NCBI GenBank assembly: GCA_014382285.1
Contig: JACNKA010000116.1
Coordinates: 1,395-65,394, forward strand
Origin: Nitrospinota bacterium
Lineage (GTDB): Bacteria > Nitrospinota > Nitrospinia > Nitrospinales > VA-1
Length of the DNA stretch: 64,000 nt
Reading direction: 5' to 3'
The notes under the pieces are model-generated. The model was not told where the DNA came from. It was given only the letters and a program-made list of their open reading frames with translations, and ran no database searches. The translations under genes and the position numbers were made by a program. Positions 49,300-56,322 of this stretch are shown in pieces (within the stretch, counting starts at the first letter, position 1; the number at the start of each line of letters is the position of its first letter).

Positions 49300-49965
49300 T
49301 CAGGAGCCGCCGTAGTTTTCATCCCAATCGGCAAAAGGGATTTGGGAGTTTTCATAGATGGCTTGCGACATATATGGATCTGTCTCGAAAAAGTTCTGGA
49401 TTTGGTTTGTCTGAGTTTGTGCTTCATGAATCACGGAACTCAAGTTCTCTTTACGATCTATCCTTTTGGCAAGCTCCAAATATCTCTTGATAAAAGGTTG
49501 AGCCGACTGGCTGGTGAGAGTAACTTTTTTAGGCTGCAAAACTCGATACCGATTTGCGACAGCAAATTTGGCGAACTCAAACCACACTTCTATTTGCCCT
49601 TCATTTCTACCAAGAACGATGAGTTCTTCTCTAAATTTCTGCGCTCCTTTTTCTGCCAGGTTTGTTGAAACGTAGTCGGATAACTCATCAAAAGGAATTC
49701 CATCGATGGTGTCGCATAAATATTCTAAATGAAAAATCATTGAGTTGATCATTTTGTCCAAGTTAATGCCCAGGGCAGAAAAACCTTGTAGTTCTGCATT
49801 CTTTTGAAATAAGCCCCAAACCCCATCAAATTCTGCTGCCTGATCTCTTGGAACTTTCAGCAGCTCCACTTGTTTGAGGCAGGTAGATTTTTCTGCAGGG
49901 CTGGCCCATATGGGAGGAACCAGAATGCAAAAAATAAATACCATTAGAAGATAAGTTGGCTTCAT
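49300..49965 (-). CDS. Secreted hypothetical protein
   Basis: 221 aa with a signal peptide (MKPTYLLMVFIFCILVPPIWA). I recognise no domain. Confidence 0.5.
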   Translation of the reverse strand: MKPTYLLMVFIFCILVPPIWASPAEKSTCLKQVELLKVPRDQAAEFDGVWGLFQKNAELQGFSALGINLDKMINSMIFHLEYLCDTIDGIPFDELSDYVSTNLAEKGAQKFREELIVLGRNEGQIEVWFEFAKFAVANRYRVLQPKKVTLTSQSAQPFIKRYLELAKRIDRKENLSSVIHEAQTQTNQIQNFFETDPYMSQAIYENSQIPFADWDENYGGS

Positions 49966-49973
49966 AGCTGGGT

Positions 49974-50231
49974 TTACTGACCGCTTATGTGCTCGGATGT
50001 TGAAGTTATTCCTGAAATATGAGTGTTCTCGGTGCCACTGAGATGCAAATCCGGTTGTAAATCCTGAGCATTGGGCGAATTGATGGCAGGGATAGCAGGT
50101 TTCGCTTCAATATGTTCTGGTGCCGATTGTGAGGCTTGAGGTTTTGGGGCCTGTTTGTCGGTTTTGTCTCCAGAGCAATTTAATAAGCTCATTAAGGACA
50201 TAACAACGATAAGAGAGAGTACTGCTTTCAT
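49974..50231 (-). CDS. Small lipoprotein, low-complexity
   Basis: 85 aa with a lipobox 'SLLNCSG' and a P/A/Q-rich mature region. It sits directly upstream of 49300-49965. Confidence 0.5.
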   Translation of the reverse strand: MKAVLSLIVVMSLMSLLNCSGDKTDKQAPKPQASQSAPEHIEAKPAIPAINSPNAQDLQPDLHLSGTENTHISGITSTSEHISGQ

Positions 50232-51932: not shown

Positions 51933-52625
51933 ATGGCAGGATTTGACTTAACTCTCTTTGAGAAAGAACCCGTATTGGGAATTATACGCGGTGTTGACGA
52001 AGACTCCCTCCCGGGTGTGCTGCAAGCGGCATACTCGGGGGGGCTGCGTTATTTAGAAATCACCCTCAATACTCCTCATGCCCTTCTTCTTATTAAAAAG
52101 GCTATCGAACTGTTCCCCGATTTTTGCATAGGGGCTGGAACGGTTTTATCTGCCGAGTCTAGCCAGCAGGCCATTGATGTTGGGGCGCAATTTATTGTGG
52201 CTCCAAACCTGAATGAACAGGTGGCCCAATGTTGCATTAAAAACAATCGAGCTTATTTCCCGGGAGCTTTGACTCCTACAGAAATTGAAAAGGCATGGAG
52301 TTTCGGGGCGACAATGGTGAAAGTTTTTCCTGCCGCTCAGATGGGGCCGGGCTATATTAAGCTCTTAAAGGGACCCTTTGACAAGATTAAGCTGATGGCC
52401 GTGGGCGGGATCAGTCCTCAAAATATCCCTGATTATTTTTCTGCGGGGGCCTCTGCTGTGGCACTGGGGGGATCAATATTTTCCACAAAGCGTATGGCAG
52501 ACCGGGCATTTTCTGTAATACAGAAAGAAATCGAAGAATTTATGTTTGCAGTGAACAAAATTTATTCTAATATGGGTGTGACAGATATTGCGAACCACTC
52601 TAGTAAGGGGAGAAGAGAGGCATGA
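51933..52625 (+). CDS. eda: KDPG/KHG aldolase family (Eda-like)
   Basis: 230 aa. 'VLGIIRG', 'LRYLEITLNTP', 'IGAGTVL', 'FIVAPN', 'MVKVFPA' (Schiff-base Lys region) and 'MAVGGI' are present. Confidence 0.75.
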   Translation: MAGFDLTLFEKEPVLGIIRGVDEDSLPGVLQAAYSGGLRYLEITLNTPHALLLIKKAIELFPDFCIGAGTVLSAESSQQAIDVGAQFIVAPNLNEQVAQCCIKNNRAYFPGALTPTEIEKAWSFGATMVKVFPAAQMGPGYIKLLKGPFDKIKLMAVGGISPQNIPDYFSAGASAVALGGSIFSTKRMADRAFSVIQKEIEEFMFAVNKIYSNMGVTDIANHSSKGRREA

Positions 52626-52888
52626 CCTTTGATTTTATGAAAGACTTTATGATGTTTGAAGATGAAGAACGGTTTGCCAGTCTTTGCGAGCAGTTGGAAG
52701 ATGTGATTCGTGAAATGGATGGCGGCGAAGGAAAAATCTCTGAGCTTGAAGTCATGCAAGCTCTGGATTATGTCGGATTCAACTTGTTTAGAGACAACTG
52801 GGAAGAGTATAAGAAAATGGATATGATCAACCGCGACCAGTCTCTTTCCCCGAATTCCTCAGGCAAAGAAAAGCGTTATATTCATTAG
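52622..52888 (+). CDS. Hypothetical acidic protein
   Basis: An 88-aa ORF overlapping the eda stop by 4 nt (ATGA), which suggests translational coupling. I recognise no motif. Confidence 0.45.
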   Translation: MTFDFMKDFMMFEDEERFASLCEQLEDVIREMDGGEGKISELEVMQALDYVGFNLFRDNWEEYKKMDMINRDQSLSPNSSGKEKRYIH

Positions 52889-53034
52889 TCCATCTGCTCC
52901 AGTTTCTCCAGGTTTTGCATCAGCCGGTGCATTTATGTCCCGTGCTTGGCATATCCCCTGTTTTTTTCTGATCTATAAACCCGTAGACACTTCTCAATAA
53001 TCAGTAGGCCAACCCACTTGCGGAGCGCCTGATT

Positions 53035-55182
53035 TTATTTAGCCTGGAAGCCTTGCTTCGCCAACTTTTCATATTCATCCTGAAGTTGGTTCTCGACATG
53101 TTTCACATGCCCGACCAACTCGTGGATTTTGATATCTATCTCCTTCAAATGGCTTGAGAGCTCTTGCAAATCCTGATCTGGAGTGTCTTTGAGAAACACT
53201 TCACAACGCTTGGCATGATGGGATATATGTTCAACCAGGTCGTGTACTTGGTTGATGTTATTTTGCAGTTGAGTTGTTTCCTCCTTCAACTGGGTGGCAC
53301 CCAACTCAGCCTTGATAATAAAAGTGTAGATTAGCGCAAAGACAAAAGCCCCAAACAATACCCCCTGCCCGATGAATGTCTCCCAAGTGGGGTACATGCC
53401 AAGCCAGGAAACTGAGGGTAAGAAATTTGCGGCAGTCATGGAAAGTTGTTCACCCATTTGCAACTCATGAAGTCCTTTTCCCATGAAGGTGAATGCCATG
53501 TAATACAAAAGAACACTGGTGAAACCAAAAAACCATTTGATGGGAATTCTCATGCCCAACTTATTGACCAGGTAAAATACCACCGCCAGAACCACACAAC
53601 CTGCCAGAAACCCCGGCAAAATCCCCTCGTTCGCATCGCCTGAATACAAATACAATGCTTTATAAAAAAGTACCGTTTCGAATCCTTCGCGGTAGACAGA
53701 TATAAAAGCCACCGCACCCAGAGTAAAAGTATTTCCCCTGGACAGGGCGCCATGCATTTGTTTGTTGATATATTCCTGCCATCGCTTGTTGTCTATTTTG
53801 GAAACCAGCCAATAGCTGACAGAAAATAATACGGCAACAGCTACCAGCATGATCCAGCCTTCAAGGACTTCCTGGCTGGCCATGCTCAAGTGAAGGACTT
53901 CGTGGACTATATAAGCTGTGGCAAAACTGGCAAGAATGCCGACCACCACGCCGATATGGATGGATTTCACCCGGCCCTGATTGCGGGATTTAACCAAAAA
54001 CGCGATCAATGCCGCAATAATGAGAATGGCCTCAAATCCTTCGCGAACGATGATGGAGAATGATTGAAAGAACATCCCCGTAAAACCGACCTCACTCTTG
54101 AGCAGTTCCAAACTCTTTGCCAGGTTCAGGTTGATTTCCTTCTGAAGCGATTCAACATCCTCAAATGGCGCACTACGCTTGATCTCTCCGCGATAACGGC
54201 TAAAAGCTGACTCAAGACTCACACCAAGATCCTTGTCCTTGGTAATGAGGTTGGACTCAATTTTTTCATACACCAGATAAGCGTCGAAAGCCAATTCGGC
54301 GGCATCATCAACTTGACCTGCTTTGTAGATGCTTAAACTCTCTGCAAGAAGTCTTCCGACCTCTTCAATGACCTGATCGACAATATCCTTGTTGGCATCT
54401 GCGGATGATTCGATAGCGGCCAGTTCAATGTTTACGGGCGGGAGTTTTAAGTCTGCGTTCGAAAAAGTCCTGAGATAATATGTAACATCCCAAATCTGCT
54501 GATCCGAAAGTATCCCGGCCCAGCCGATCATTGCGGTGTTGGCAATCCCAACAATAATCACTTCAAAATTATCATAGGCCTTGGTGTTTGCATCTCCTGT
54601 CAGCTTTGGATTAGATAAAACGGCAGGGGAGGGTTCAAAGTGAACGGACAAAGGGCCATCACCATCACCTTTAATGCCATGGCAAACCGAACAGTTAGTT
54701 TCATATATCTTTTTCCCATTTGCCAGCGATACGGGTGTAATGGGTGTTTTATAAATTCGAACATTGAAAGTTTCCAGAAGTTCTGAGTTGATGCTGTTGA
54801 CTTCTTCCCACATGGTTCGCGATTCGACTTTGCCCTCAACCATATCCATCAAGTTTAGAAACCGCTTTTTAAGGTTTTCTGCTTTTTCAGGCTCTTTTAT
54901 TTTTGTGCTTATTCTTTCAAACCTCTCAGTTGCCTGCTGTAGAAAAACCTTGCTTTCTTTATACTCCATGGGCACAACTATCTTCCCATCCACCACACCC
55001 TCTTCAAATTCTTTGGCGGCGATGTTGAGCATCATTACTATTTTTCTTGTTCTATCTATGGTCTCTTGATTTACGGCTTCACCCTGCTCAGTAGCCCAAA
55101 AAATCTGACTTAAAAATAAGGCCGCTAGTAAAATTTTATTAAAACCCGTTTTCTGGGTCATTGCGTTTTTTATGGATGACAT
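53035..55182 (-). CDS. Fusion protein: periplasmic mono-heme cytochrome c domain + FTR1/EfeU-type iron permease + His-rich cytoplasmic tail
   Basis: The heme motif CSVCH lies at 54679-54693. The two FTR1 signature motifs are REGFE (res 414-418) and REGFE (res 532-536, track numbering). About 7 TM helices are present. I place the start at ATG 55182 ([10 protein letters not shown]..signal anchor), because the track start at 55284 lies upstream of the predicted promoter -10. Confidence 0.85.
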
Positions 55183-55247
55183 GATGGGTAAACCATTAAG
55201 ATGTTTATATTTATGATAGTTGCTACCGAGCTTGTACTTTTTAAAGT

Positions 55248-55295
55248 AATAATGAGAATTGTTATCAATATAGAAGAAAGTCATTGAAATGTCAA
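55248..55295 (-). promoter_or_regulatory. Sigma70 promoter with abutting Fur box upstream of the cyt c-FTR1 gene
   Basis: The minus strand reads TTGACA (55295-55290), a 17-nt spacer, TATATT (55272-55267), then immediately GATAACAATTCTCATTATT (55266-55248). Its plus-strand form AATAATGAGAATTGTTATC matches the 19-bp Fur consensus GATAATGATAATCATTATC at 15/19. Confidence 0.7.
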
Positions 55296-55423
55296 GGTAG
55301 GAAAGAAACTCAGAATATATGACACAAACAATTATTTAAGGAGCGAATAAACCGGGTTTGATAGCAGAGTTTTCCAGAAGTAAAAAGAGGACATCGAGGC
55401 CTGTAAAATATGATCAGATATAT

Positions 55424-55720
55424 CTAGAACTGCTTGAGCCGGTTTTCCCACTCACCAATGAGTTCGTGAAAACGATCAACATGCTTTTTTTCTTCCGACA
55501 TCAGGTCATAATACATTCTTCGCATACCGATATTGGTATCCGAATCTTCAAGAGTTTTTTCGACCAGAGTCTGGTAATAATTGACGGAGTTTTCTTCGCT
55601 AACAATACCCTTGCGCAAAACATCCAGCCGAGCTTGTACGGTTTCGGGGGTTTCTTTATCGGATTCCATATATGCCTCAGGATTTGATACTATTAATTGA
55701 TGAGAACGATCCCAATACAT
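55424..55720 (-). CDS. Small ferritin-like (rubrerythrin/EncFtn-like half-ferritin) protein
   Basis: 98 aa (81 aa from the alternative Met at 55669). 'SEENSVNYYQTL' is followed 34 residues later by 'EEKKHVDRFHELIGEW'. This gives an E...ExxH di-iron half-site pattern on a predicted two-helix hairpin. Confidence 0.5.
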   Translation of the reverse strand: MYWDRSHQLIVSNPEAYMESDKETPETVQARLDVLRKGIVSEENSVNYYQTLVEKTLEDSDTNIGMRRMYYDLMSEEKKHVDRFHELIGEWENRLKQF

Positions 55721-55789
55721 CGTATCTAGCTCATGATTTGCACGAGGACGTTTTTAAATTATACCAGAGAACTTATTATGGAGTGTGTC

Positions 55790-56257
55790 ATGTACAAAAA
55801 AATAGCGGTTTTTTTTCTGATGATCCTGCTTTCTTGCCTTTCCGGTTGTTCCCTGCATTCCGGGTCAACTTATGACCGCAGCGAAATGGGTTCGCCGGAA
55901 TACTTTAAAAAGGGCGTTATTGTATCTGTAAGGGATGTGGAGATTAAGGGAACGGAATCGGGAACAGGTGCTGTAGCAGGAGCAACAGCAGGGGGCCTTG
56001 CGGGTTCTACTCTGGGTGGGAACACAGCGACTCGTGCGCTGGGTGCTTTAGGGGGCGCAGTCATAGGCGGGGTGGTGGGCCATGCTACTGAAAATGTAAT
56101 CACCAGCGGTGATGCATCGGAATTCATCATCCAACCAGATGAAGGGGAACCTTATGCCATTGTACAAGTTAACGATGAAGAACTTAAAGCAGGCGAACGG
56201 GTCTTGATCATGGATTCCGGTAAGGTGCGTGTCGTCAGAGACCAAAGCAAAAAATAA
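55790..56257 (+). CDS. Glycine-zipper outer-membrane lipoprotein (SlyB/17-kDa-antigen-like)
   Basis: The ATG at 55790 gives the lipoprotein signal MYKKIAVFFLMILLSCLSGCS. It has a Gly-zipper 'GAVAGATAGGLAGSTLGG...LGALGGAVIGGVVG'. The track start at 55733 is an upstream extension. Confidence 0.75.
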   Translation: MYKKIAVFFLMILLSCLSGCSLHSGSTYDRSEMGSPEYFKKGVIVSVRDVEIKGTESGTGAVAGATAGGLAGSTLGGNTATRALGALGGAVIGGVVGHATENVITSGDASEFIIQPDEGEPYAIVQVNDEELKAGERVLIMDSGKVRVVRDQSKK

Positions 56258-56322
56258 TCAGGCGGTATCCACTGACAGGTTTTAAATAAAATGCACGGTC
56301 TATTCTGGAGGTTTGCAGCAGC

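Follow-up and report, generated by a model that had tools for sequence, protein, structure and literature searches.

How would an FTR1-type iron permease be supplied with Fe(III) at a locus where none of the familiar oxidizing partners stands beside it? The question is raised by a gene on the minus strand of a 64,000-nucleotide (nt) stretch of DNA from a Nitrospinota bacterium (contig JACNKA010000116.1, assembly GCA_014382285.1; hereafter the window), in which a single uninterrupted open reading frame (ORF; 53035..55284, minus strand; 749 amino acids, aa) encodes a cytochrome c fused to an FTR1 permease. The gene may encode an inner-membrane, Fur-repressed iron importer in the PbrT branch of the iron/lead transporter superfamily that acts by a heme-oxidation mechanism, a reading that we judge about evenly poised between right and wrong. 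The fusion itself is not new; what is new is a conserved His-rich hairpin at its C terminus, the homology of this hairpin to the tail of a PepSY_TM protein, and the loss of that partner from the window genome. An earlier note on this DNA had described one ORF holding heme domain, permease, and tail, and all of these elements were found where it had placed them.

The fusion is not an artefact, as a single ORF of like length (711 to 722 aa) recurs in about 80 Nitrospinota species-level genomes; an origin by frameshift or misassembly, raised in the note as a way in which the fusion might dissolve into separate ORFs, was rejected on the same ground. Close homologues comprised the identical protein and about 120 others, from Nitrospina/Nitrospinales assemblies. 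Because homologues begin at the equivalent of M35, and because codons 1 to 34 of the 749-aa ORF overlap the promoter and Fur box described below, the real start is probably the ATG at 55182, giving a product of 715 aa; residue numbers of domains and conserved positions are those of the 749-aa ORF. The public annotation of the identical protein (P0001) starts at M84 and yields 666 aa, a difference that concerns 55033-55182 (minus strand); this start was rejected because it would cut off a signal peptide kept in all related loci.

The AlphaFold model predicted, in order, a signal helix, four helices, a cytochrome c, four helices, seven transmembrane (TM) helices, and a long helix-loop-helix tail, with a predicted local distance difference test score (pLDDT) of 90 for the periplasmic part alone and 77 for the full-length protein. 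The five-part make-up proposed in the earlier note was thus recovered in all its parts, except that its N-terminal "signal anchor" looks like a cleavable signal peptide: in 55/55 inspected loci, a hydrophobic segment and an AxA-type site preceded a conserved KKIVMM motif, the cleavage-site context being GEA/VNQ in the window protein and AQA/TNQ in relatives. The CSVCH heme motif with its helical flanks, also pointed out there, proved to lie in a class-I cytochrome c domain. The domain matched Pfam Cytochrom_C with 47.8 bits against a cut-off of 21.3 (E=3.9e-12) and, among PDB sequences, 6h5l_B (E=2.9e-15), and Foldseek likened its predicted fold to c6, c552, and ACIII ActE, with target TM-scores of 0.7-0.78 for c6 and c552. 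CSVCH begins at aa 198, and Cys198, Cys201, His202, and Met252 did not vary among 67 sequences with identities as low as about 25-35%. In its CxxCH, distal Met, modeled fold, and conserved export signal, the fused domain has what is expected of a class I c-type cytochrome.

The cytochrome is flanked by two predicted four-helix bundles, of which the second, together with the FTR1 core, is the portion common to most relatives. Invariant residues were E92, E107, E110 (the latter two in an EYxE motif), and F114 in bundle 1 and Y336, E340, E343 (ExxE motif), and E358 in bundle 2; acidic residues thus dominated the invariant periplasmic positions outside the cytochrome, with two ExxE-type motifs besides the two RExxE motifs of the membrane part. 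A Foldseek search with the bundles, a structural comparison that the earlier note had proposed, gave generic four-helix-bundle matches only, with Escherichia coli EfeO (7wgu_A) at rank 38 and a TM-score of 0.21; an EfeO/imelysin (M75) or cupredoxin fold for these helices was rejected on both Pfam and Foldseek results. The two bundles were weakly alike (hhalign probability 54%, E=1.3e-4), which suggests an old internal duplication of a helical bundle with the cytochrome inserted between the copies.

The membrane part matched Pfam FTR1 (PF03239) with 97.2 bits against a cut-off of 25.3 (E=1.4e-27), so that both families for which a profile search had been advised, FTR1 and Cytochrom_C, were found above cut-off. 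NCBIfam TIGR00145 (7e-37) and the EfeU models also matched the core but stayed below their equivalog/full-length cut-offs, and the permease is therefore not an EfeU orthologue. The RExxE pair noted earlier was borne out: REGFE starts at aa 414 and again at aa 532, both copies being invariant in 67 homologues. The previous count of about seven TM helices held as well, with hydropathy and AlphaFold both giving seven; from these and from positive loops after TM1 and TM3, the N terminus was predicted to lie outside and the C terminus inside. No solved FTR1 structure was found, by sequence or by fold.

This architecture places the protein in a large family. An exhaustive profile search returned at least 950 representative clusters at E<1e-30; in most of the best 150, an RExxE pair came after one or two CxxCH motifs located around residues 110-260. 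Plasmid-borne members are annotated as "cytochrome c/FTR1 family iron permease" (also the NCBI name of close homologues) or "FTR1 family protein" and lie in heavy-metal clusters, with MerR-type regulators, P-type ATPases, and resistance-nodulation-division (RND) or cation diffusion facilitator efflux genes alongside. The copy on pMOL30 of Cupriavidus metallidurans adjoins a Pb-responsive regulator and a P-type ATPase and is on that account identified as pbrT. By BLASTP, the window protein matched PbrT with E=1e-68 and 28% identity (query aa 18-621 against PbrT 6-633), an alignment running from the signal peptide through TM7, and the PbrT motifs CASCH, REGLE, and REVFE put CxxCH and both RExxE in register with those of the window protein. 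Judged by sequence, the window protein belongs to the PbrT family, which is known but mechanistically unstudied; our literature searches on the cytochrome c/FTR1 fusion, Nitrospina iron uptake, and PA5248 found nothing mechanistic. The earlier note, which knew of no functional study, nevertheless overlooks PbrT of pMOL30, a full-length homologue with its own CxxCH, which the literature places in the iron/lead transporter family as a putative protein for Pb(II) uptake (PMC3431237). PbrT members occur on Pseudomonas chromosomes as well (PMC2573884).

Over 600 residues, window protein and PbrT share one architecture: the signal peptide leads into a helical module that bears the EY-E motif, then come a cytochrome c with CxxCH and another helical module, and a seven-TM part with two RExxE closes the order. 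They differ in that PbrT is without the C-terminal tail, is plasmid borne, and belongs to a lead-resistance operon under the MerR-type PbrR, whereas the window gene is found on a chromosome with a Fur box in front of it, and its product ends in a His-rich tail of 90 residues. On a Xanthomonas hortorum plasmid (L002:5001-7601), a PbrT-family gene has directly behind it a gene for a cation-diffusion-type "cation transporter" and an RND efflux cluster; there, tblastn continued its match beyond the permease stop into the "cation transporter" gene.

Relatives that have bundle 2 and the FTR1 core in common with the window protein indicate what the periplasmic part might do. In their N-terminal periplasmic region, two (P0129 and P0168) had a P19-type Fe-transport domain, one (P0182) had a weak, below-cut-off match to a cupredoxin-like domain, and one (P0134) had two cytochrome c domains; a further relative (P0189) was fused at its C terminus to an ApbE flavin transferase. 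As far as these domain matches go, P0129, P0168, P0182, and P0189 show a modular exchange of accessory redox/metal domains around the FTR1 core. In FtrABCD, the partners FtrA and FtrB are P19 and cupredoxin, respectively, and the swapping in of such domains argues, indirectly, for a fused periplasmic domain that serves as metal/redox partner of the permease. In this the window protein would resemble EfeUOB (E. coli, Bacillus subtilis) and FtrABCD (Brucella, Bordetella), in which an FTR1-type permease likewise relies on periplasmic redox/metal-binding partners, and it resembles FtrABCD further through the fused P19 (FtrA-like) domains and the one weak cupredoxin (FtrB-like) match among its relatives. 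Unlike in those systems, the window locus showed neither genes nor folds of the EfeO, EfeB, P19, cupredoxin, or polyferredoxin kinds; any partner function would be fused and heme based.

The same domain has been considered in another role, in which it would sense redox state or O2 in the periplasm and gate the permease without being a catalytic partner, with the tail serving simply as a coiled-coil oligomerization element. That the protein has a single heme and no evident second redox center, and that Nitrospinota occupy oxygen gradients, would suit such a sensor; the neighboring invariant acidic motifs, however, suggest a metal site close to the heme domain, and the exchange for P19- or cupredoxin-like domains points to metal handling. 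We regard this explanation as improbable, and the tail, discussed below, bears on its second half.

The regulation of the gene speaks to which metal is carried. A sigma-70-type promoter matching 11/12 consensus positions, the top promoter-like site within 52600-56300, precedes the gene, and its -10 hexamer abuts a 7-1-7 operator, scored here against the Fur 7-1-7 consensus TGATAATnATTATCA; relatives (e.g., L042-L047) also showed TATATT immediately before the box. Within the window, 7 sites with <=3 mismatches were found against 4.8 expected, which is weak evidence when taken alone, and the 19-bp E. coli Fur consensus had no match in the window at <=3 mismatches, the 7-1-7 form being the informative one. 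Across species the picture was clearer: a box with <=2 mismatches stood at a fixed distance from the coding anchor in 44/52 distinct Nitrospinota loci, six of them perfect, against 5/1768 random 380-nt windows from the same loci (0.3%). In each of 42 loci, the clade consensus TGATAAYnATTCTCA had a single occurrence, invariably on the upstream side of the permease gene, and its only exact match in the 64-kb window was the box at 55253-55267. Because the position of the box is conserved across species far above background, control of the permease gene by a Fur-family repressor, as the title of the earlier note had announced, is well supported at the level of sequence.

A PbrT-type transporter for some other metal (Pb, Mn, Zn, or Cu), with a structural or vestigial heme domain, has to be weighed against this. 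It would accord with the full-length homology to PbrT, with the plasmid members in heavy-metal clusters, and with the fact that the Fur family includes Zur and Mur, which have similar boxes. We nevertheless give it little credence: the box agrees with the classical Fur 7-1-7 consensus, perfectly so in several species, the gene is chromosomal, occurs in about 80 Nitrospinota species, and adjoins a ferritin-like gene, and heme ligands invariant across the family are not what a vestigial domain would lead one to expect.

Iron import is the preferred function, and the C-terminal tail adds a feature that PbrT lacks. The earlier note had described a coiled-coil tail of about 90 residues with 8 His; the length and the 8 His (within the last 94 residues) stand, whereas the shape predicted by AlphaFold is not a single coiled coil and instead continues from TM7 as a helix-loop-helix hairpin (pLDDT 55-67). 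Its core residues are H681, E685, and H690 in helix 1 and H712, D717, and H721 in helix 2, with H686, H689, C694, and H726 in addition. H681, H712, D717, and H721 were invariant in all tails, and E685 and H690 nearly so. The resulting patterns, H-x3-E-x4-H in helix 1 and H-x4-D-x3-H in helix 2, have identical antiparallel spacing centered on the loop at aa 699-705, and because of this identity His would stand opposite His and Glu opposite Asp in the hairpin; we infer that the facing ligands would suit one or two metal ions. Within Nitrospinota, conservation of the tail equaled that of the TM core, and the tail was also found in a subset of distant relatives, where the core residues were retained. 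This conserved His/Glu/Asp core fits metal binding.

No Pfam or NCBIfam match was obtained for the tail, only weak coiled-coil noise, and a profile search with the tail alignment for other architectures returned only short Nitrospinota fragments and split genes. Hemerythrin/HHE (PF01814) was rejected as an identity, since there are two helices only and no match, the likeness being limited to HxxxE/HxxxxD spacings. That library matches were to weak coiled-coil families alone would favor the oligomerization element that goes with a heme sensor; against it, the invariant residues are His, Glu, and Asp and not hydrophobic heptad positions alone.

The tail also connects the permease to a second protein. 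Directly 3' of the permease gene in most Nitrospinota lies a gene for a product of about 510 aa, separated by a gap of 9-15 nt or overlapping by 4 nt, that encodes two PepSY_TM helices flanking a BNR/Sortilin-type beta-propeller. Over its last ~70 residues, this protein showed homology to the tail of the permease (E=8e-14; 31% identity), whose His, Glu, Asp, and Cys positions it kept, the ligand core included. In a count not corrected for phylogeny, the PepSY gene adjoined 46/57 tailed permeases and 0/13 tail-less ones. In the window, only a relic of its 3' end was found, between the permease stop and a convergent 88-aa gene: it is degraded, reading ...IEKCLRVY...*MHRLMQNLEKLEQMD, and its last 75 nt shared 87% identity with the 3' end of the complete copy in a relative, L010 (blastn, E=6e-21). 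By this sequence evidence, the window genome has lost its ancestral operon partner by deletion; the earlier remark that no partner gene is nearby, correct in that no EfeO, EfeB, Fet3, or P19 gene was found within about 5 kb of the permease, had missed this relic. In L003 (the same contig is also L008), the PepSY_TM/BNR gene is split into ORFs of 430 and 80 aa (L003:6166-7700 versus L007:6262-7797), leaving the tail module alone, and short stand-alone tail proteins are present in databases (P0329; NITGR_740004 of N. gracilis); either genuine gene splitting or frameshifts may lie behind them.

PepSY-like proteins have been tied to the reduction of iron outside the cytosol and to repression by Fur (PMC8238504), and a preprint presents FoxB as a siderophore reductase of the membrane (bioRxiv 10.1101/2021.01.28.428567). 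The PepSY_TM/beta-propeller protein is likely a transmembrane ferric reductase. Like FoxB and VciB, it has PepSY_TM helices, and its gene forms an operon, headed by a Fur box, with that of an iron permease; it differs from them in having only two TM helices, which flank a BNR/Sortilin-type beta-propeller and in ending in a permease-type His-rich hairpin, and in the window only its relic is kept.

A putative reductase as ancestral neighbor invites the opposite direction of electron flow, in which the heme would take electrons from the respiratory chain or the PepSY_TM partner and reduce periplasmic Fe(III) or its chelates, the core then carrying Fe(II). The tie of the PepSY_TM family to extracytosolic iron reduction (PMC8238504; bioRxiv 10.1101/2021.01.28.428567) is in its favor, as are the predominance of Fe(III) in oxic seawater and the fusion of some relatives to ApbE, a flavin-transfer enzyme of extracytosolic electron transfer. 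Three considerations nonetheless make such a reductive mode unlikely in our view. The window gene persists without its PepSY partner, and Fe(III) is favored by the hard carboxylates and Tyr that make up the conserved ligands in the periplasm. Moreover, in every FTR1 system studied to our knowledge (Fet3-Ftr1, EfeUOB, and FtrABCD), RExxE is taken to handle Fe(III) made by oxidation.

Under the oxidative mechanism that we prefer, low iron would take Fur off the box abutting the -10 hexamer, and the permease would be transcribed. Sec export and heme attachment would then yield two four-helix bundles around a His/Met cytochrome c; periplasmic Fe(II) would bind at the bundle carboxylates (E92, E107-x-x-E110, Y336, E340-x-x-E343, and E358), where the heme would oxidize it by one electron, and the Fe(III), as in Fet3-Ftr1, EfeUOB, and FtrABCD, would be handed to the REGFE motifs of TM1 and TM4 and carried across by the permease. 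The heme would be re-oxidized by the periplasmic cytochrome c pool or a terminal oxidase, and because re-oxidation would fall to the respiratory chain, we propose that no copper oxidase would be needed. On the cytoplasmic side, the mirror-symmetric H-x3-E-x4-H and H-x4-D-x3-H ligands of the tail hairpin would lie opposite one another and coordinate metal. In most Nitrospinota, the permease tail would pair with the homologous tail of the PepSY_TM/beta-propeller protein to form a reductase-oxidase-permease unit; in the window genome, with the PepSY partner deleted, the permease would act alone or with an unlinked partner.

Several points weigh against this reading. PbrT, the sole relative with a name, was proposed for Pb(II), which is redox inert, and was left without a role in later modeling or work (PMC3431237), so that heme-dependent oxidation is not established for the family. 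No Fur gene was found in the window, where ten small ORFs were checked, and, going by the box alone, a Fur paralogue such as Zur, Mur, or PerR could own it. The tail model is of low confidence at its pLDDT of 55-67, the ligand geometry coming from residue spacing and not from coordinates, and the co-occurrence of tail and PepSY gene is a count that ignores phylogeny. The features on which the argument draws are collected in Table 1.

Table 1. Features of the permease locus, with positions in the window and residues in 749-aa ORF numbering
Feature	Residues (aa)	Position	Strand	Basis or detail
Sigma-70-type promoter		55267..55295	-	TTGACA 55295-55290, 17-nt spacer, TATATT 55272-55267
Fur-type 7-1-7 operator TGATAACAATTCTCA		55253..55267	-	Abuts -10 hexamer; 2 mismatches to TGATAATnATTATCA
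Cytochrome c/FTR1 (PbrT-family) permease gene, probable true extent		53035..55182	-	715 aa + stop; longest ORF up to 55284
Signal peptide (predicted)	35-70	55075..55182	-	Hydrophobic core, then AxA-type site; probable cleavage after GEA
Four-helix bundle 1 (predicted)	73-172	54769..55068	-	AlphaFold model of periplasmic part; invariant columns
Class-I cytochrome c domain	188-273	54466..54723	-	CSVCH 54679-54693; Met252 54529-54531
Four-helix bundle 2 (predicted)	299-395	54100..54390	-	AlphaFold model of periplasmic part; invariant columns
FTR1 core, 7 TM helices	401-659	53308..54084	-	REGFE 54031-54045 (TM1), 53677-53691 (TM4)
Cytoplasmic His-rich helix-loop-helix tail (predicted)	660-749	53038..53307	-	His count, conservation, homology to PepSY-protein tail
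Relic of PepSY_TM/BNR gene 3' end		52860..52998	-	Translation IEKCLRVYRSEKNRGYAKHGT*MHRLMQNLEKLEQMD; blastn, tblastn
Encapsulated-ferritin-like small gene		55424..55669	-	81 aa from second Met; longest ORF to 55720 (98 aa); E...ExxH half-site

In 31 Nitrospinota loci, the small ferritin-like gene is the immediate upstream neighbor of the permease gene and shares its strand; it is without a signal peptide and stands upstream of the Fur-box promoter. Its product matched Pyrococcus furiosus EncFtn (PDB 5n5e_e, E=5e-4), Glu and ExxH being in register, and also NCBIfam EncB_fam (E=3e-5; 23.9 bits, below the cut-off of 90), and Pfam Rubrerythrin (E=0.002, below cut-off). No encapsulin gene adjoins it. 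Farther away, at 49300-50231 (minus strand), two adjacent genes encode a secreted protein of 221 aa and a lipoprotein-like one of 85 aa, both of which have export signals but matched no family; the gene for the former recurs near the permease in about 20 loci.

With its presence in about 80 Nitrospinota species behind a Fur-type operator, the permease is probably a main iron entry route of the phylum. Nitrospinota perform much of the ocean's nitrite oxidation and have a high iron need. The family to which the permease belongs, PbrT or "cytochrome c/FTR1", is very large and essentially without mechanistic study, and a tail common to the permease and its PepSY_TM operon partner offers a handle on the coupling or regulation of both proteins. 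A likeness to the yeast Fre1/Fet3/Ftr1 pathway may be drawn in the FTR1 permease with its paired RExxE and, by inference, in the putative membrane reductase that the ancestral operon adds; the differences are that the proposed oxidant is a fused heme c domain, where yeast has a separate multicopper oxidase, and that the candidate reductase is a PepSY_TM protein and not an NADPH oxidase homologue. Going further, the His-rich hairpin may be an undescribed cytoplasmic metal-binding and docking domain that pairs an FTR1 permease with a PepSY_TM reductase, in a copper-independent, all-heme counterpart of the yeast reductase-oxidase-permease pathway in which metal occupancy feeds back on uptake; we offer this tentatively, as an idea that has perhaps one chance in four of holding. 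In eukaryotic phytoplankton, a copper requirement links iron limitation to copper limitation. If the heme domain is the oxidant, it would be a copper-free answer to the oxidase requirement of FTR1 permeases. Under the tentative idea of a paired, all-heme pathway, marine nitrite oxidizers would acquire iron without a requirement for copper.

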